22,741 nt of DNA, taken from Candidatus Jordarchaeales archaeon (lineage in GTDB: Archaea > Asgardarchaeota > Jordiarchaeia > Jordiarchaeales > Freyrarchaeaceae). The translations under genes were made by a program, and so were the position numbers. Where the stretch lies: assembly GCA_038889235.1 (NCBI GenBank), contig JAWAHN010000004.1, positions 1 to 22,741 of the forward strand, written 5' to 3'. The notes below the pieces were generated by a model. The model was not told the origin of the DNA. It made no database searches and worked only from the letters and a program-made list of their open reading frames with translations. Positions 1 through 16,345 of this stretch are shown one piece after another; position 1 is the first letter of the stretch; each line of letters begins with the position of its first letter.

Positions 1-410
1 GGGACTGTTTTTGTTTCCTTGTGTTTTTTTGTTTGTTTTTTGTTTTTTAAGTTTTTTCTTTTTCTTTTTTTGTTTGGTTTTCGGAACATTGGTTTTTTGG
101 TTTGGGGTTTATAAGGATGTTCCGGAATTGGTTGTGTGTTTTTTGGTTTTGTTTTGTTTTTTGTGTTGTTTTTGTTGTTTTGTTTTGTTTTTTGGGTTTG
201 AGGGTGTTGTTTTTTGTTTTTTGTGTTTTTGTTTTTGGTTTTTTTGTTGTTTGGTTTTTTGTTTTTTGTGATTTGTGTTTTTTCGTGTTTTTTTGTGTGT
301 TTTTCTTTGTTTTCTTTGTTTTTTTGGTTTTTTGTTTTTGTGGTTTGGTTTTGGGTTTGTTGGTTTGGGGGGTGATGTTCCGGGTGGGTATTTATGTTTT
401 TCTGTTTTTG
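1..410. repeat. Low-complexity G+T-rich non-coding tract (possible CRISPR leader or upstream regulatory region)
   Basis: Hand count: 14 A and 12 C in the first 360 nt (about 93% G+T), with many T-runs. It lies directly upstream of the cas1 operon. The leader role is inference only, since no repeat is visible. Confidence 0.6.
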
Positions 411-423
411 AAATATATTTCCG

Positions 424-438
424 AAAAGTATTTATATT
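424..438 (+). promoter_or_regulatory. Archaeal BRE/TATA promoter of the adaptation operon
   Basis: AAAAGTA followed by TTTATATT (431-438), about 22 nt before ATG 460 with no RBS. This is typical leaderless spacing. Confidence 0.6.
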
Positions 439-456: not shown

Positions 457-1389
457 GTGATGGGCTGTGGCGGGGTGGTTGCTGTGTTTGGGCGTGGTCG
501 GTTGGCTGGCTTTGTTGGTGGGGTTTGTGGTGGTGTTTCTTGTGTTGATGAGTGTTTTGTTGTGGTTGGTGGTTTTGGTTGGCGTCGTTTTTTCGATTTC
601 TGGTTGCCGTTTGTTGATACTGTTTCGCTTGTTGATGGTGGGGTTGAGTGGGGTGGTTTTCCTCTTTTTGGTGAGCATGTTTTTGTTTTTGGTGAGGGGA
701 GGCGTTGTGTGGGTTGTTTGGGTTCCGCTGTGGTTGATGGTTTTAGTCTTTGTGGGGGTTGTGCTTCTTCGGTTTGGGGGGCTAGGTGGATGTGTAGTGT
801 TAGGGGTGCTGGTGTCCCGTTTGGTTCTTCGTCTTGTAGCTTGGATGATCCTGCGTGTGGTTTGAGGGGGGCTGCTTCTAGGTGTGGTGGTGAGCACTAT
901 GTTTACCTTGCGGGGTTTGGCTGGGTTTTGAAGGTTGGTGTTGTTGCTGCTGAGAGGCGGGATGGTTTTGTTTCTCGTTTGTTGGAGCAGGGGGCTGACT
1001 GGGCTGCTGTTTTTTCTGGTGGGTTTACGCTTCCCGAGGCTCAGCTTGTTGAGAGGGAGGTTTCGAGGGTTTTTGGTGTTGCTGAGAGGGTTGGGCTTGG
1101 GGAGAAGGTTGAGGTTTTTCGTTCTGGTGTGGTGTGTGACTGGGGTGGTGTTGTGGGGGAGGTTGCGGACTATTTTGGTCTTAGGCTTGTAGGCTGCTAC
1201 GATTTTTCGGGCGTGTATGGTTGCTGCCCGGAGTTTGAGGTTGCTGGTGTCGTGCGTGGTCCTAGGGTGTTTGGGGGGAGGCTCGTCTACGCTAGGGGGA
1301 ATGTGGCGTTCTTCGATGTCGGCGGGGAGGGGGTTTACGCTCTCGACCTTTCTTCTCTTCAGGGTTTGCCTGTCGAGTGTGAGGTTTGA
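457..1389 (+). CDS. DUF2797-like protein: Cys-rich Zn-binding region plus GIY-YIG-like motif (putative nuclease)
   Basis: C84xxC87, C99xxC102, C113, C127, C134, then C143xxxH147-YVYLA...K159VG...R174LLEQGA...E194AQLVE, and a C-terminal GRLVYARGNVAFFD. This matches my recollection of the DUF2797 pattern. Start at GTG 457 or ATG 460. Confidence 0.75.
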   Translation: MMGCGGVVAVFGRGRLAGFVGGVCGGVSCVDECFVVVGGFGWRRFFDFWLPFVDTVSLVDGGVEWGGFPLFGEHVFVFGEGRRCVGCLGSAVVDGFSLCGGCASSVWGARWMCSVRGAGVPFGSSSCSLDDPACGLRGAASRCGGEHYVYLAGFGWVLKVGVVAAERRDGFVSRLLEQGADWAAVFSGGFTLPEAQLVEREVSRVFGVAERVGLGEKVEVFRSGVVCDWGGVVGEVADYFGLRLVGCYDFSGVYGCCPEFEVAGVVRGPRVFGGRLVYARGNVAFFDVGGEGVYALDLSSLQGLPVECEV

Positions 1390-1402: not shown

Positions 1403-2428
1403 GTGGAACTTGAGGTTTTTACTTCGGGGTGTAGGGTTGGGCGTAGGGGTAGGCTTATTAGGGTTACGCGTGGCGGCGAGGTGGTTTGTGAGGTTCCGGT
1501 GTCTAAGCTTAGCATGGTTATTGTTTCGGGTAGGGTTTCGGTTTCGAGTGAGGCTGTCCGTCTTCTTGCTGAGAACGGGGTTCCGGTTTTGTTTATGTGC
1601 GGGTGGAGGCCTGTTGCTTTGCTTCACGGCTTCTTCATGCATGGGACTGTTTTGACTAGGAGGGAGCAGATTGCGGCTTACCGTGACTGGAGGGGGGTTC
1701 ACCTGGCTAAGGGGTTTGTTAGGGGTGGCCTTGTAAACAAGGCTCAGCTCCTCCGCTACTTTGCGGCGAGTAGGGGTAGGAGTGATGGAGGGGTTGCGAG
1801 GGTTCTCGAGGAGGCCGCGTCCGAGATTTTCAGGGTAGCGTGCGAGGTTGACGGGGTTGAGGGCGAGTCTGTGGATGAGGTTAGGTTTGAGATTATGGGT
1901 TTGGAGGCTGAGGGGGCTAGGTTGTACTATGAGGCTTTGCGCCTACTGCTTCCGGAGGAGGCTGGGTTTGAGAGGCGTGAGAGGAGGCCTCCTAGGGACC
2001 CTGTGAACGCGTGTCTGAGCTATGGTTACAGTTTGCTTAACGCGAAGTGTTTGGCTGTGGTTGCTGCTTGCGGGCTTGAGCCTTACGCTGGCTTCCTTCA
2101 CGCTGACAGGTCTGGTAAGCCTTCCCTCGTCCTGGACTTGTCTGAGGAGTTTAGGCAGCCTGTGGTGGACAGGACTGTTGTCTCGCTTTTCTCTAAGGGT
2201 GAGCTTAGGAGGGAGGATTTCTCGTTTAAGGGTGGCTTTGTCGTGCTTGAGAAGAGAGGGAGGGAGGTGTTGCTGAGGGCTTTAAACGAGAGGTTTAGGG
2301 GGGAGGTGAGGGTTGACGGGGGCTCGGCCCAGCTTGGGAGCGTTATTTCTAGGCAGGCGAGGATGGTGGCGCGCTTCCTCCTGGGGAAGGCGCCTAAGTA
2401 CGAGCCTTTCTTCTTTGACTGGCACTAG
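1403..2428 (+). CDS. cas1: CRISPR-associated endonuclease Cas1
   Basis: GLEAEGARLYY, RRPPRDPVNACLSYGY, GFLHADRSGKPSLVLDLSEEFR (catalytic E/H/D-E). Start reassigned from 1217 to GTG 1403 after RBS GGGGGTG, giving 341 aa. Confidence 0.97.
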   Translation: MELEVFTSGCRVGRRGRLIRVTRGGEVVCEVPVSKLSMVIVSGRVSVSSEAVRLLAENGVPVLFMCGWRPVALLHGFFMHGTVLTRREQIAAYRDWRGVHLAKGFVRGGLVNKAQLLRYFAASRGRSDGGVARVLEEAASEIFRVACEVDGVEGESVDEVRFEIMGLEAEGARLYYEALRLLLPEEAGFERRERRPPRDPVNACLSYGYSLLNAKCLAVVAACGLEPYAGFLHADRSGKPSLVLDLSEEFRQPVVDRTVVSLFSKGELRREDFSFKGGFVVLEKRGREVLLRALNERFRGEVRVDGGSAQLGSVISRQARMVARFLLGKAPKYEPFFFDWH

Positions 2429-2438
2429 GAGGGGTTGG

Positions 2439-2720
2439 ATGTTCGTGGTGGTTTACGACATCACTGATGACAGGTTGAGGGAGCGGGTTGCCTTGACGCT
2501 CATGGAGTACGGTTTTAGTAGGGTGCAGAGGAGCGTGTTTGTGGGAGATGTTAGCAGGAATGTGGCTGAGATGCTTGCCATCGAGCTTAGGAGGCTTGTC
2601 GAGGGGAGCCCCTGTGACCTGAGGATAATACCGGTGTGCGCGAGGTGCTACATGGGGGTGATCATCGTTGCAAGGTATGGTGAGCCCTCTGAGGCTGAGA
2701 GGGAGGTTGTGGTGACGTGA
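2439..2720 (+). CDS. cas2: CRISPR-associated endoribonuclease Cas2
   Basis: MFVVVYDITDDRLRERVA...RVQRSVFVG. Start at ATG 2439 after GGAGGGG, 93 aa, directly downstream of cas1. Confidence 0.96.
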   Translation: MFVVVYDITDDRLRERVALTLMEYGFSRVQRSVFVGDVSRNVAEMLAIELRRLVEGSPCDLRIIPVCARCYMGVIIVARYGEPSEAEREVVVT

Positions 2721-3256
2721 AGGCTCTCTTTACCGTCGACGACGTGAGGCAGTACGCTTACTGCAGGAGGAAGATCTATTTCAGGTATGTTTTGAGGGTT
2801 AGGGTTAAGCCGACGGTTAAAATGGAGCGCGGGAGGGAGGAGCACTCGAAGTGGAAGCCGAGGGGTGAAGGATACTTTAGCGTTTACCTTTCTTCTGAGG
2901 GGCTTGGGCTTGCCGGTTTGGTCGACTACTTCATTTATGGCGGCGGCGTCGTGGTCCCCGTTGAGGTGAAGTTTGGTGGCCGTGGGAGGGTACACGCCAG
3001 CCACTACCTGCAACTGGTGGCTGAGGCCCTCCTGCTGGAGGAGTGCTTCGGCGTGAGGGTCGAGAAAGGGGTCATAGAGTACCCTGACACGGGTGTGAGG
3101 GTGGAGGTGAGGGTGACCGACGGAGCTAGGCTTAGGGTTCTCAGAATGCTGGAGGAGATGAGGGAGATCGTGGAGGGAGAGGTTATCCCTCCCCCGGCGC
3201 GGAGAAGGGCAAGGTGTGAGGCTTGTGAGGTTTACAAGGTTTGCATGGGGGTTTAA
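2717..3256 (+). CDS. cas4: CRISPR-associated exonuclease Cas4
   Basis: N-terminal YCRRKIYF, RecB-like GLVDY...PVEVK and QLVAE, C-terminal CEACEVYKVC (four Fe-S Cys). GTGA overlap with cas2. Confidence 0.95.
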   Translation: MKALFTVDDVRQYAYCRRKIYFRYVLRVRVKPTVKMERGREEHSKWKPRGEGYFSVYLSSEGLGLAGLVDYFIYGGGVVVPVEVKFGGRGRVHASHYLQLVAEALLLEECFGVRVEKGVIEYPDTGVRVEVRVTDGARLRVLRMLEEMREIVEGEVIPPPARRRARCEACEVYKVCMGV

Positions 3257-3675: not shown

Positions 3676-4854
3676 GTGGCCCTATACTCTTCTCTTAGGT
3701 TTCAGGAGGTGGATTTGTTGAAGGCGGATTTGAGTGTTTTGAGTGAGTCTCCCTTATCTTTAACACAGGTGGTTAGTGACGAGACTTTAATGAAGTTTTA
3801 TGGGAAAAGCTTGCTGCTGCTCGGTCCCCCCGGTGTGGGGAAGAGTGAGACTGTCAGGCGTGTTGCGGAAAAACTTGCTGAGCGGATGGGGTTGAGGTTT
3901 GTGGAGCTGGTGGACGAGGTCGAGGTCGACGGGGATGTTTTCTTGTTTTACGATTTGAGGTTGACGGAGGTTGAGCCGACGGATCTTGTCGGGTTCCCGG
4001 TGGTTGGGGATTGCGTGGTTTACAAGCCTTTGAAGTGGGCGGTGCTCTTCAGCAGACATCCGGGTGTCCTGTTTTTGGACGAGTTGACTAATGTGAACCG
4101 TGAGGATGTTTTGACTGCTGCTTACAGGATTATTCATGAGCGGCGGGTTGGGGATGTCAGGTTTCACCCTGGGGTTTGGGTTATCGCTGCTGGTAATGTG
4201 CCGGAGCATAGTAGTGTGGCTAGGATGCTTCCGGCCCCGTTGGTTAACAGGATGATTGTGGTTAAGTTTCCGGTGCCTAGTGTTGACGAGTGGGCGAGGT
4301 ACATGGATGAGAAATATGGGCAGGAGTGGGATAGGAGGGTTTTAGCGTATCTTAAAGTGTTTCCCAGGGATTTTCTCCATGTTCCGGGTTCGGAGACTTT
4401 GGATAATTTTCCGACGCCGCGTTCTTGGACGGAGGTGGCTTTGTTCTTGCCGAAGGTTTGGGGGGATCCGCACGCTGTGAACGTGCTCTGTAGGGGGTGT
4501 CTTGGGGAGAGTGTTGGAGGAAAGTTCCTTGCTTTCCTTAAGATGGAAGTGCCGGATATCGATGAGATTTTGGAGAAGCCTCAAGTGTTTGGTAAGCTTG
4601 GGGTTGAGCAGCGCCACTTGTTGTGCACCGCTTTAGCCGACTGGTTGAAGGCTGACTTTAACAGGAGGGCTGTGAGGGCTCTTCCCCTCTTGAAGTTGAT
4701 GCTCTCTGAGAGCAGGGAGATGTTCATGTTCCTCGCCTCTGTTATGGGTAAGAGGTATGCCGAGAAGCTTTACAGGTTTCTGCACCACGAGGCTAGGGAC
4801 CTCTTGATGCCGCTTCTCGAGCAAGTTGCGGAGTTTGCTGATCCTATTTTGTAG
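3676..4854 (+). CDS. MoxR/AAA_5-type AAA+ ATPase
   Basis: Walker A GPPGVGKS, helix-2 insert YDLRLTEVEPTDLVGFP, Walker B VLFLDE, sensor-1 IAAGN, Arg finger LVNRM. The real start may be TTG 3715 or 3718 after RBS GGAGGTG. Confidence 0.9.
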   Translation: MALYSSLRFQEVDLLKADLSVLSESPLSLTQVVSDETLMKFYGKSLLLLGPPGVGKSETVRRVAEKLAERMGLRFVELVDEVEVDGDVFLFYDLRLTEVEPTDLVGFPVVGDCVVYKPLKWAVLFSRHPGVLFLDELTNVNREDVLTAAYRIIHERRVGDVRFHPGVWVIAAGNVPEHSSVARMLPAPLVNRMIVVKFPVPSVDEWARYMDEKYGQEWDRRVLAYLKVFPRDFLHVPGSETLDNFPTPRSWTEVALFLPKVWGDPHAVNVLCRGCLGESVGGKFLAFLKMEVPDIDEILEKPQVFGKLGVEQRHLLCTALADWLKADFNRRAVRALPLLKLMLSESREMFMFLASVMGKRYAEKLYRFLHHEARDLLMPLLEQVAEFADPIL

Positions 4855-4897
4855 GGTGGTGGGTGCTGGGCTGCGCAGTTTTAAGGGGGTGGTGGGT

Positions 4898-6115
4898 GTG
4901 AAGTATTGGGACGTGGCTGAGGATCTGCGTTCTATATGCACGGCGCTGTTTGGGGTTGTCCCGTGGATTTCCGCCTTTCTTATGAAGCTTAGGGTGGTCG
5001 GTGTAGAGGACATGCCGTGCGATGGGGCGGTCAACGATATGGGTGTGTTGTTCATAAACGTTAGCTCCTGGCGTAGGGCTTCGATGAGTGAAAAGGTGTT
5101 CATCTTGCTTCACGAGGCGTTGCACGTCGCGCTTAAACACTTTGCCAGGGCGAGGAACATCCTCGACAGGGAGGGAAAGGTAAACCTCGTGCTTTTCAAC
5201 GTGGCTTGCGATCTAGTGATTGATGACATGCTTATCATGGACCGCGCGCTTACGAGGTCGCTCGCGAAAGTCTCCGGGAAACACTTTTACTCGCTCTTGT
5301 CGAAGGTGGCATGCACAGACGTGAAGTATCGTTTTGGTATGTCGTGCGAGGAAATTTACCACTTGTTGCTTAGGAAGGTTAAAGTGGTACCCGATATCAC
5401 CATCGACCTCTGCTTTGACACAACGTATGGAGAGGAGGACGTCATACAGGAGGGGTCGCCTGAAATCTATTCCAAGCCAAGCTGGATGGATGTTGCAAGT
5501 AGGATTGAGAGCGTGTTGAGGAGCATAGAAGTATGCTTTGGAGGTCTTAGTGGCTGTGGGGGGTATATGGTCGCCGAGGAGTTACTGAAGCCGAAGATTA
5601 ACTGGAGGGCTGAGCTCAGGGAGAGCATACGCCGCGGGGTGGGGCGCAATGTTGTGTCGACTTGGACTAAGCGGCACAGAAAGCTTCCCGGGCTCGCACC
5701 GGGGATAGTTATGCTCAGGCGCCCCGACATCTATTGCTTGGTCGACGTTAGTGGGAGCATAAGCCAGAATATGGTGAACCAGTTTTTCACCGAGATTTTC
5801 ACCGCTGCGCGTCTTTCCAAGGTTCACGCCGTGTTCTTCGACGAAAAGGTTAGAGGGGTTTTCAGGGTGAGGCCCGGCATTATACCAAGGGTGGAGGGGG
5901 GAGGCGGCACGGTGATCAGCCCGGCTCTCAGTCTGGTCTACAAGAAGGCGCGCCGAGGCGACATAGTCGTCGTGCTCACGGACGGGCTCGTCTCCGACGA
6001 GCGGAAGCAGGATAAATGGCTGAGGAAGTTGGCTTCAAAGGTGGGGGAGGTGATTTATTGTTCAACAGCAAGGTTCCCCAATGTTGAGGTTAAAAAGGTG
6101 AAGTTGGAGGTGTAA
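4898..6115 (+). CDS. HExxH metallopeptidase plus vWA domain protein (DUF2201-like), partner of the AAA+ ATPase
   Basis: FILLHEALHVALKH and NVACDLVID at the N-terminus. vWA MIDAS residues LVDVSGSIS, GGGGT and VVLTDG at the C-terminus. Start reassigned to GTG 4898 (the track ORF from 4826 overlaps the ATPase). Confidence 0.88.
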   Translation: MKYWDVAEDLRSICTALFGVVPWISAFLMKLRVVGVEDMPCDGAVNDMGVLFINVSSWRRASMSEKVFILLHEALHVALKHFARARNILDREGKVNLVLFNVACDLVIDDMLIMDRALTRSLAKVSGKHFYSLLSKVACTDVKYRFGMSCEEIYHLLLRKVKVVPDITIDLCFDTTYGEEDVIQEGSPEIYSKPSWMDVASRIESVLRSIEVCFGGLSGCGGYMVAEELLKPKINWRAELRESIRRGVGRNVVSTWTKRHRKLPGLAPGIVMLRRPDIYCLVDVSGSISQNMVNQFFTEIFTAARLSKVHAVFFDEKVRGVFRVRPGIIPRVEGGGGTVISPALSLVYKKARRGDIVVVLTDGLVSDERKQDKWLRKLASKVGEVIYCSTARFPNVEVKKVKLEV

Positions 6116-6120
6116 GGGGT

Positions 6121-7050
6121 TTGTCGTCCTCTTATTTCCATACCGGAAACACACGTAAACGGGACGAGTTCGACCCACACTTCGAGCGACTCATGGCCCG
6201 CCTCGGAATGAGCTTCAGGTGCAGTGTGTGCGGGCGCAGGCACGAGAGTGACTGGAATGCATGCTACGGGAAGGCAATCAAGATCATAGACCAGTATCTC
6301 TTAATGGAGAACGTTCTTCAAATGATTACGTGTGTCAGAAAATTGAAAGAGATGGGTGAAAGTGAGGGCGACAATCCCGCCGGCAATTTCTGGAGTATTT
6401 TCAACCCGCTTAGCCAGCGCGTTGCCCCCGTGCTCTTGAGGGGTGTAGCGGGGTTGAACGTCGCAATTAAGGTGGCTAGTGAAGTGGCTGCGGAGTATGC
6501 TGCGTCCTTCGGCGTCAAAGCCGAAGAGCTTGTCAGTTACCTTGAAGACCCGTGGAGGTTCCGTGAGAATTTCCTGAGCAACGCTATAATAGATTTCACA
6601 CTCCTCGTAGATCTACCAAGTATGGTCAATCTTGTCAAGAAGTACGCTGAAGTTGTCGAGGTTGTGAATAAGAGGATTTTAGAGGCGGTTGAAGCACTCC
6701 CTGAGGCTAGAGTTGAGGAAGTGAAGAGGAGCAAAAATGGGTATATAAGCATGGTTAAGTTTGGCGGCCTGACCCTGCCGAGCAAGGTGATCATCAAATG
6801 CATATTCCCTTCTGTTTTTGAAGCCGACCTGCCGGTGAGACGAGTGAGTCTCCTCCAGGTTGATGAAGGGTTGAAGCATGCTGTAGTCTGGAGGAGCCTT
6901 GGGAAAAGGAAGCAGGTGAAGAAAGGTTGGCTGCTTGTCTCGCGAAGCAGAGTGGTTGCAGAGCTGAGCAAAGAAGAAGCAAAACTCGACATTTCAACTC
7001 TCGTTTCAAAGTATTTGCGCTCAGAACGTGTGCAGGGTGAGTGTTTGTAG
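6121..7050 (+). CDS. Hypothetical protein with N-terminal CxxC-x3-H-x6-C zinc-finger-like motif
   Basis: 309-aa ORF 5 nt after the vWA gene, with CSVCGRRHESDWNAC and natural amino-acid composition. No family recognised. Confidence 0.75.
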   Translation: MSSSYFHTGNTRKRDEFDPHFERLMARLGMSFRCSVCGRRHESDWNACYGKAIKIIDQYLLMENVLQMITCVRKLKEMGESEGDNPAGNFWSIFNPLSQRVAPVLLRGVAGLNVAIKVASEVAAEYAASFGVKAEELVSYLEDPWRFRENFLSNAIIDFTLLVDLPSMVNLVKKYAEVVEVVNKRILEAVEALPEARVEEVKRSKNGYISMVKFGGLTLPSKVIIKCIFPSVFEADLPVRRVSLLQVDEGLKHAVVWRSLGKRKQVKKGWLLVSRSRVVAELSKEEAKLDISTLVSKYLRSERVQGECL

Positions 7051-15094: not shown

Positions 15095-16345
15095 CTAAGT
15101 GAATATCCTAATTTTTTCTATTTCTTGCGCCCTCTCTTCTCCTAGGAGCATTCTCACTATTTCCATGGCTTTCTCGACGGCTTTCTTCGCGTTTTCCTCG
15201 TCTACGCTCGCGTACCCGTGCTCGAGCTTCGAGTTGTTTCGGAGGTTTGACACGAACTGGAGGTTCTTCACGACCTCATCTATCTGGCTTATCGGGTTGA
15301 TGATGTTGAGCAGCTGAAGACCCTTCCACAGCGTCAGGTGTTCAGGCGGGTTTTCTTCGCACTCCAGCTTCCTGAGGACCTCCCGGCTGTTTGGTATCTG
15401 CTGCCAGTTTACGTTCCAGGGATTCACCTTGTTCTCGAGCAGCCTCAGCTGAACGGCGGCTTCGACCGCTCTGTAGGCTCTGAGGACTGCTTCAGCGTAC
15501 TGCCTCGTCTTAAGCCTCCTCTCAGCGTTCGCAAGGAACTCGAGTGGGGCGAGGTGCCCGTCCTCGGTGCTGAGCTCCGCTCCCCTGTTCTGGCAATCCT
15601 TCAGCGCCTTCAAGGCTTTGACGAGACGGTTTCCTATGCTTCTAAGCTTGACCACGTTTTCCGGTATCCTGCCTAGGGCCTGGAGCGGTAGGAGCGCTTC
15701 TGCTTCGCTGCCGATTTCATTGATTATTTTCACAGCCTCCTCGTGTTCGAACGAGTCCCACAGCCAGAGGGCGGTGCACGCCTTTTTGAGGAACGTGTAT
15801 GTGTCAGGGAGCTCCTTCGAGCGCTCGAGCGCGAGGTAGAACTGGTAGCTTTCCACGTACGCCACAACCCTGTCGGCGACCTCTTCAACAGCCGTTTTGT
15901 AGTCTTTCTTGACAACCATGCGTCCACTGACGCGCCCTCTATCGTCCCTGACTGCTCCCCCAACGTACTCGAAGACCACCTTGAAGGGGGCCCTAGTGGC
16001 GAACACGTGGAAGGCTGCAGCAGACAGGGGCTTCGTTCCGCCGGTGAAGTTGACTATCACTTCGCCCGCCTTCATGTCCGCCAGCTCTTTGACCAATTTT
16101 TTGAACGCCTCAACACATAAACTAACGTCTTCGGGGTCTTCCACCTCAAGCCGCACTACCTTCTTCTCCATGGCCCCAGCGTAGTCCAGCACTCTCCTAG
16201 CCACGTCTAAAGGGCTTGGATGCTGGCCGGGGAACGGGCGGCCGTGCACGAGGTAGACGAGGTCAACGTCGTTGGTTTTGACCGACTCTACTATCGGCTC
16301 GTGAGTCGTTCCGACCGTTGCAACTAGCACCCTCACAGAACCCAC
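15095..16345 (-). CDS. CARF-HEPN cOA-activated ribonuclease (TIGR02710/Csm6-like)
   Basis: CARF motifs LVATVGTT and VNFTGGTKPLS, a helical middle region (ANAERR...AVLRAYRAVE) and the HEPN motif RNNSKLEH (Rx6H). Alternative start GTG 16336. Confidence 0.88.
   Translation of the reverse strand: MGSVRVLVATVGTTHEPIVESVKTNDVDLVYLVHGRPFPGQHPSPLDVARRVLDYAGAMEKKVVRLEVEDPEDVSLCVEAFKKLVKELADMKAGEVIVNFTGGTKPLSAAAFHVFATRAPFKVVFEYVGGAVRDDRGRVSGRMVVKKDYKTAVEEVADRVVAYVESYQFYLALERSKELPDTYTFLKKACTALWLWDSFEHEEAVKIINEIGSEAEALLPLQALGRIPENVVKLRSIGNRLVKALKALKDCQNRGAELSTEDGHLAPLEFLANAERRLKTRQYAEAVLRAYRAVEAAVQLRLLENKVNPWNVNWQQIPNSREVLRKLECEENPPEHLTLWKGLQLLNIINPISQIDEVVKNLQFVSNLRNNSKLEHGYASVDEENAKKAVEKAMEIVRMLLGEERAQEIEKIRIFT

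Follow-up and report, generated by a model that had tools for sequence, protein, structure and literature searches.

The proteins that help Cas1-Cas2 to take up spacers form a short list, in which we found no GIY-YIG member. Cas4, Csn2, DnaQ-type exonucleases and reverse transcriptase are encoded beside cas1 or cas2, or are fused to them, and they supply, trim or position prespacers. To our knowledge, none of these adaptation accessory proteins is a GIY-YIG or a DUF2797 protein. Our literature search found no paper tying either to CRISPR adaptation (Makarova et al., 2020, on Asgard CRISPR, lay outside that search and may show the gene). In the accessible portion of the 2025 classification, "GIY" does not occur in the text, nor DUF2797 in two of the supplements (PMC12669027). 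Among described adaptation operons, the same layout is seen in the type I-A systems of Sulfolobales, where the gene for Csa1 (PF06023, TIGR01896), a nuclease of the Cas4 family, stands first, before cas1-cas2-cas4. A palindrome beside the BRE/TATA element of the csa1 promoter is bound by Csa3a (PMC4333418), and PAM, length and orientation are set by Csa1 and Cas4 (bioRxiv 10.1101/486738).

Here, we consider an operon of this layout with a different protein at its head. The window, by which we mean the whole 22,741-nt stretch of DNA that was analysed, is the start of contig C4 in a genome of 2.14 Mb. In it, a gene of the DUF2797 branch is followed at close spacing by cas1, cas2 and cas4 (Table 1), all three of which score above the Pfam/NCBIfam cut-offs. 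The first gene ends 13 nt before the GTG of cas1 at 1403, as the sequence-only reading had stated; that reading also had the gene carry the operon promoter, but the predicted promoter lies upstream of it, at 421-436. Further downstream in the window are type I-A genes, csa3, CARF genes and the type III-B genes cas10 and cmr3.

Table 1. Features of the adaptation operon and of its first gene (window coordinates; residues counted from GTG457).
Feature	Position	Strand	Basis
First CRISPR repeat, 5' part (36/37-nt family ending ATTGAAAG)	1..17	-	repeat of arrays on C1, C2, C3, C5
T-rich CRISPR leader and intergenic region	18..405	.	sequence, comparison with relatives
12-bp palindrome (410-421) abutting BRE/TATA-like element (421-436); predicted	410..436	+	kept in L001, L182, L183
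cas1-linked DUF2797-branch gene	457..1389, likely start 484	+	homology, fold match, tree, dN/dS
N-terminal beta strands, residues 35-78, pairing with C-terminal strands	559..690	+	DSSP
Two predicted Cys4 metal sites: C84, C87, C99, C102; C113, C127, C134, C143	706..885	+	alignment
GIY-YIG-like core: Y150 (YVY strand), K159/G161 (KVG strand), R174 helix, linker strand, E199 helix	895..1074	+	DSSP on model, alignment, structure matches
C-terminal beta strands closing barrel (G281, LxG303)	1240..1383	+	DSSP on model, alignment
cas1	1403..2428	+	Pfam/NCBIfam; catalytic E168/H233/E248 intact
cas2	2439..2720	+	Pfam/NCBIfam
cas4, 4-nt overlap with cas2	2717..3256	+	Pfam/NCBIfam

Counted from GTG457, the first gene encodes 310 aa. 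Residues 1-31 show no conservation and are disordered in the model (pLDDT <50), and the start common to relatives is GTG484, which gives 301 aa and has an SD-like GGGGTGG 5 nt upstream. GTG484 is likely the true start; R174 and E199 then become R165 and E190, while Y150 and all other residues named in this text are numbered from 457. The gene is under purifying selection, with a dN/dS of 0.15-0.16 against four relatives (0.14-0.22 for cas1), and because this value is like that of cas1 we regard the gene as real despite the G/T-rich DNA. An extreme G/T skew over positions 1-1400 extends into the coding sequence and gives a Gly/Val-rich protein in these related genomes. The nearest proteins come from genomes named Jordarchaeales (Asgard), and 69 relatives were found among 50%-identity representatives.

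The array to which the repeat at the window start belongs sits on another contig; in three relatives (L001, L016 and L183) it is in place. Judging from the ATTGAAAG end of the repeat, array and operon probably point away from each other. Positions 1-127 are the reverse complement of the array start on C2 and are identical to the start of C3, where the same leader core precedes a thiolase-like gene (by sequence reading) and not cas genes. Repeats in the arrays of this genome have either four or five C at one place, and spacer lengths are alike in its two systems (132 spacers, median 40; 7 spacers, median 38). The element at 410-436 is predicted to be the operon promoter with a possible regulator site; the palindrome is present as a single exact copy in the genome, with none at the other cas promoters. 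An Rfam search gave no match. Between cas4 and the type I-A genes, an AAA+ ATPase, a metallopeptidase-vWA gene (DUF2201) and an unknown gene (3676-7050, +) were found, all absent from the corresponding place in the relative L001. An RNA ligase-like gene (PF09414; 13957-15015, +) adjoins a CARF-HEPN gene at 15095-16345.

From profile comparison, the family assignment was not immediate. The protein matches Pfam DUF2797 (PF10977) at E 4.5e-4 and 20.6 bits and does not reach the gathering cut-off of 25, but 54 of 59 aligned relatives match it at E up to 0.05 (best 3.4e-16), and the relatives P0007 and P0008 are labelled PF10977. The predicted structure (pLDDT 88) superimposes on an Atlas DUF2797 model over residues 33-310 (TM 0.68; 251 residues, rmsd 3.1), and by full-length homology and the fold shared by the two models we class the protein as DUF2797. 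No Csa1 or Cas4 match (PF06023, PF01930, TIGR01896) was found with Pfam, NCBIfam or PADLOC, PADLOC, PHROGs and NCBIfam returned no match at all, and a sequence search of PDB chains gave nothing significant.

When 400 genomes of the phylum were searched with a profile, 160 yielded homologues, in two score groups that are also separate branches of the tree (our trees are of a quick kind, with support by SH-aLRT alone). The upper group, or short form, comprises 41 loci in 38 genomes and 13 families. In 39 of the 41 a Cas1-like ORF lies directly downstream; of the other two, one lies at the end of its contig and the other has a divergent cas1 upstream. The linkage to cas1 reported for this genome from its sequence is thus not unique to it. 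The gaps from stop to start are mostly -16 to +15 nt. None of 49 inspected loci from the lower group has cas genes within ~2 kb, and their sampled neighbours are of housekeeping type (radical SAM, RNase E/G-like, aminotransferase and HEAT-repeat genes). A tree rooted with bacterial DUF2797 gathers all linked forms into one clade (SH-aLRT 98). With the long forms described below, this clade is found in 50 of the 400 genomes, spread over 15 families, and a Cas1 match in 96; among the sampled Asgard genomes that have cas1, about half have the branch directly before it. When 122 full-length cas1 loci were inspected, 53 were linked to the DUF2797 clade, 8 to csa1 and 33 had cas4 upstream, the rest having another gene or too short a flank. 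The named members of the clade come from Jord-, Freyr-, Njord-, Thor-, Odin- and Heimdallarchaea or from bins assigned to the same phylum by GTDB.

Being related, the genomes do not count as independent, and the numbers above amount to a single old association, not to many. The correlation between DUF2797 and Cas1 distances (rho 0.76) may likewise be plain co-inheritance. The DUF2797-cas1-cas2-cas4 module is intact beside I-A, I-B and I-D effectors, with cas4 in most clade loci, and stop and start codons continue to abut across 15 families and these three effector types while other neighbours change. Five metagenomic members of the clade were picked blind by tree: four (P0112, P0119, P0027 and P0096) are followed by cas1, and in the fifth (P0109) the next gene encodes a helicase that includes a Cas1-like domain. 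An out-group DUF2797 protein (P0055) has no cas gene following. P0030 is not taken as an exception to the linkage, since in its close relative P0109 the following gene is the helicase just described. Thus far, no clade member with flanking DNA has been found away from a Cas1 domain. A related-locus search (alignment A1) gave three close loci only, none in metagenomes. Eleven genomes have both the linked copy and an ordinary DUF2797 paralogue, which favours duplication and specialisation. By the tree and the gene neighbourhoods, a duplicate of the widespread DUF2797 gene was fixed once before cas1 and has remained in place.

Several loci of the clade depart from the common arrangement. On one Logan contig (L192, 6927-10349), the clade member overlaps with the beginning of the gene for a DEAD-box helicase of 1140 aa, whose C-terminal part is a Cas1-like domain (residues 916-1100); housekeeping genes and a TnpB-like gene lie around it, and no cas2 was called within 6 kb downstream. 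In L046, L048 and L049 (genomes G056, G053 and G054), a degenerate Cas1 paralogue, cas2 and cas4 come after the clade gene, with a better-scoring cas1 upstream that points away, and in L051 a 794-codon ORF takes the place of the degenerate paralogue. Three loci (L186, L187 and L188) read cas6-DUF2797-cas1-cas2, with no cas4 adjoining. One clade gene copy has an in-frame TAG and one linked cas1 an in-frame TGA (L017 on G324:C113 and L042 on G012:C234). In two distant genomes (L035 and L039), a HerA-like ATPase gene and a partner of 470-490 aa lie beyond the array or leader, upstream of the operon.

The predicted structure has a beta barrel split over both ends of the chain, two Cys4 clusters and a central domain. 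The barrel is SH3/Tudor/KOW-like, with weak VIA matches across both ends (Z 3.0-4.1). Among the short forms, 42 of 43 keep each Cys of both clusters, as do all 11 long forms; both clusters are predicted to bind metal. In a few metagenomic members (P0010, named Njordarchaeum, and P0014, P0021 and P0023), the second cluster is absent and the nuclease residues are kept.

The sequence-only reading had noticed several Cys pairs and a YVY-KVG-R174-E199 pattern like that of GIY-YIG nucleases, and alignments show both to be present and conserved. The definition of the GIY-YIG core comprises the GIY tyrosine, the YIG residue (Lys in Hpy188I), a glycine, and one helix each for the arginine and the glutamate (PMC3045582), features to which the positions of Y150, K159, G161, R174 and E199 correspond. 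The secondary structure elements of the model also come in GIY-YIG order (strands 147-154 and 157-164, helix 170-178, strand 182-190, helix 192-206), with pLDDT >90 there. All 43 short forms carry these five residues without exception, and so do 49 of 49 non-cas paralogues, so their conservation is not CRISPR-specific. Four residues after R174, an invariant Gln (Q178) is found where GIY-YIG enzymes have Tyr or His as a proton shuttle; the position is His in a set of 24 Asgard GIY-YIG proteins, and another residue may substitute.

Against solved structures, the resemblance is modest. The best solved matches of the central domain (VIA) are GIY-YIG enzymes, namely HIGLE (Z 5.1), Slx1 (4.8 and 4.6), I-TevI (4.0) and UvrC (3.8), with 79-91 residues at rmsd 3.0-4.0 for the Slx1 and HIGLE matches (Z 4.6-5.1). 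When the core was folded alone, the same order of matches was obtained, with Z from 4.9 to 3.5. Z-values of 3.5-5.1 are low and within the range which the tool calls common. Foldseek against the PDB, with the whole model and with the domain, found no match at E 0.001 (UvrC at probability 0.54, E 0.45), and HHalign against a profile of the 24 Asgard GIY-YIG proteins gave 0.4%, which is not significant. We therefore call the core GIY-YIG-like, a description of the model that rests on the order of its elements and on its residues. The fold itself is not new, since a 2026 preprint reports a GIY-YIG-like fold for DUF2797 by another method (bioRxiv 10.64898/2026.10.10.758204); the accessible passages of the preprint that name DUF2797 mention nothing on CRISPR. 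In the five genomes of family f1 (G000 and G112-G115; 73-95% complete), we found neither a canonical GIY-YIG domain (PF01541, including that of UvrC) nor an ordinary DUF2797 paralogue.

Taken together, the genome comparison shows a linkage that is specific and old, and from this we infer the function: it is probable that the linked DUF2797 gene has a role in CRISPR adaptation. How it would act is a more tentative matter. The protein would be transcribed and translated with Cas1, in keeping with the gene spacing. The barrel and the two zinc sites, which all forms retain, would bind DNA or the Cas1-Cas2(-Cas4) machinery. In most lineages, the GIY-YIG site would act like that of Slx1-type enzymes and nick DNA with branches or flaps, and nicking would make or trim prespacer ends, so that the protein would serve as a second nuclease beside Cas4, like Csa1 with Cas4 in Sulfolobales. 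We consider this full sequence of steps, from co-expression through binding to nicking, plausible at somewhat less than an even chance, and the substrate cannot be read off from the resemblance to Slx1. A complex prediction with two Cas1 copies and the DUF2797-branch protein scored 0.01 (mark 0.32) and is counted for neither side. The sequence-only reading had proposed that an uncharacterised nuclease family may have been recruited to generate or process prespacers. The recruitment has gained from the linkage beyond this genome and from the GIY-YIG-like core, but prespacer processing stays a proposal, and a long form of the protein lacks the catalytic residues.

This long form occupies 13 loci, spread over 12 genomes of families f20 and f18, is 435-570 aa in length, and likewise precedes cas1-cas2-cas4. 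It is homologous to the short form (HHalign 99%, E 9e-18) and falls in the linked clade. Neither the eight Cys nor the barrel glycines are lost in any of the 11 full-length long forms, whereas Y150 and G161 are found in 0 of 11 and R174 in 3 of 11; the Cas1 beside them has all three catalytic residues intact. Since the long form holds the slot without catalytic residues, cutting is not the sole job of the family and is dispensable in those lineages. The degenerate site comes with an expanded helical middle (L129, L133, L138, L139, L150, L152, L153, L155, L161, L165 and L180). L130 (G143) looks like a further long form and L181 (G134) is doubtful. Pfam gave no match in the two long forms tested, and a search for longer or fused forms of 574-2000 aa found none, which is weak evidence.

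A first alternative is an adaptation factor that acts by binding and not by cutting. The protein would then be a scaffold or DNA-binding subunit with a nuclease site of secondary importance; it might position Cas1-Cas2 at the leader-repeat junction or on prespacers, or stabilise or regulate Cas1. Such a factor would account for a long form in the same slot that keeps the eight Cys and the barrel glycines around a degenerate active site, and for a gene that abuts a Cas1 domain even where that domain is degenerate or fused to a helicase. However, with a median identity of 24% among them, the 43 short forms all retain the same active-site residues, and if they did not catalyse a reaction this would be difficult to account for. 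We judge binding in place of cutting to be unlikely, although it is a serious contender, and the same holds for its positioning and regulatory variants.

Cutting may also take place at a later step. Here, the protein would be an endonuclease for flaps or branches. Its task after integration would be to resolve or repair the gapped repeat that Cas1-Cas2 leave behind, or to remove faulty half-site products. The nearest solved folds, Slx1 and HIGLE, are structure-selective repair nucleases, a repair origin would suit a family which elsewhere is a conserved non-defence gene, and Cas4, present in most loci, could trim alone. Two metagenomic loci without cas4 beside cas1-cas2 suit a trimming role equally well, and we regard a post-integration role as improbable. 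The same low standing is given to a passenger, an independent defence or repair gene fixed once at the operon head and merely co-regulated. A single origin with vertical descent can yield wide linkage, the residues are as conserved in the non-cas paralogues, and close cas1-cas2-cas4 operons without the DUF2797 gene exist: a sister group of such operons (L140, L142 and L157), on the csa1-side branch, has neither this gene nor csa1. Yet both the clade's confinement to Cas1 domains, seen in all members with flanking DNA, and the abutment maintained through changes of family and effector speak against it. Finally, that the ORF is an artefact of G/T-rich, low-complexity DNA at a contig start, as the strong skew, the Gly/Val-rich product, a 468-aa ORF on the opposite strand (109-1515, dismissed as a shadow of the skew) and a gene call of merely 199 aa in the collection could suggest, is refuted by the homologues and the selection signal (69 relatives, dN/dS 0.15, model pLDDT 88) and can be set aside almost with certainty.

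Returning to the preferred reading, the DUF2797-cas1-cas2-cas4 operon, whose linkage is well supported, would constitute a variant adaptation module. Its first gene may represent an unnamed Cas family and the first GIY-YIG-type adaptation protein. The protein would belong to the Cas1-Cas2-Cas4 machine of Asgard archaea as a subunit processing branched DNA, either of prespacers or of integration, and its binding role would be important enough to have persisted in one large lineage whose active site was lost. We offer this wider description tentatively, as one that falls a little short of an even bet. A DUF2797 family tied to cas1 would bring a further gene into the adaptation toolkit and assign a function to a DUF widely conserved in bacteria and archaea. 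It also makes two open questions testable, namely how prespacers arise and are trimmed, and what completes integration, with natural active and dead forms and a thermophile having both this operon and a csa1 operon as ready controls.

How, then, does the protein compare with what is known? Ordinary DUF2797 proteins (PF10977) have the same overall model, Cys cluster and Y/K/G/R/Q/E/K residues as the linked form, but they make up a separate clade and are found among housekeeping genes, while the linked form is found at a Cas1 domain; a flavobacterial DUF2797 gene is linked to a GH3-family gene (PMC9425974). Compared with the GIY-YIG nucleases (Slx1, At-HIGLE, the UvrC N-terminal domain, I-TevI and Hpy188I), the DUF2797 branch has a GIY-YIG-like core that is inserted, together with two Cys4 sites, into a split barrel. 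In place of the shuttle Tyr or His it has Gln, there is no significant profile match, and its activity is predicted. With respect to Csa1, the operons are alike in having a palindrome beside BRE/TATA elements and a second nuclease beside Cas4, both predicted in the present case, but Csa1 is of the PD-(D/E)XK type whereas the DUF2797-branch protein is GIY-YIG-like. The two genes never occur together in one of the inspected loci, and the Cas1 linked to csa1 belongs to another branch of the tree. This genome even has a separate csa1-cas1-cas2-cas4 operon on C2, with a 25-nt repeat. Therefore, the "csa1 slot" of the sequence-only reading is accurate as to position before cas1-cas2-cas4; with both operons in one genome and their Cas1 proteins in different branches, it describes a positional parallel and not a homologue of Csa1.
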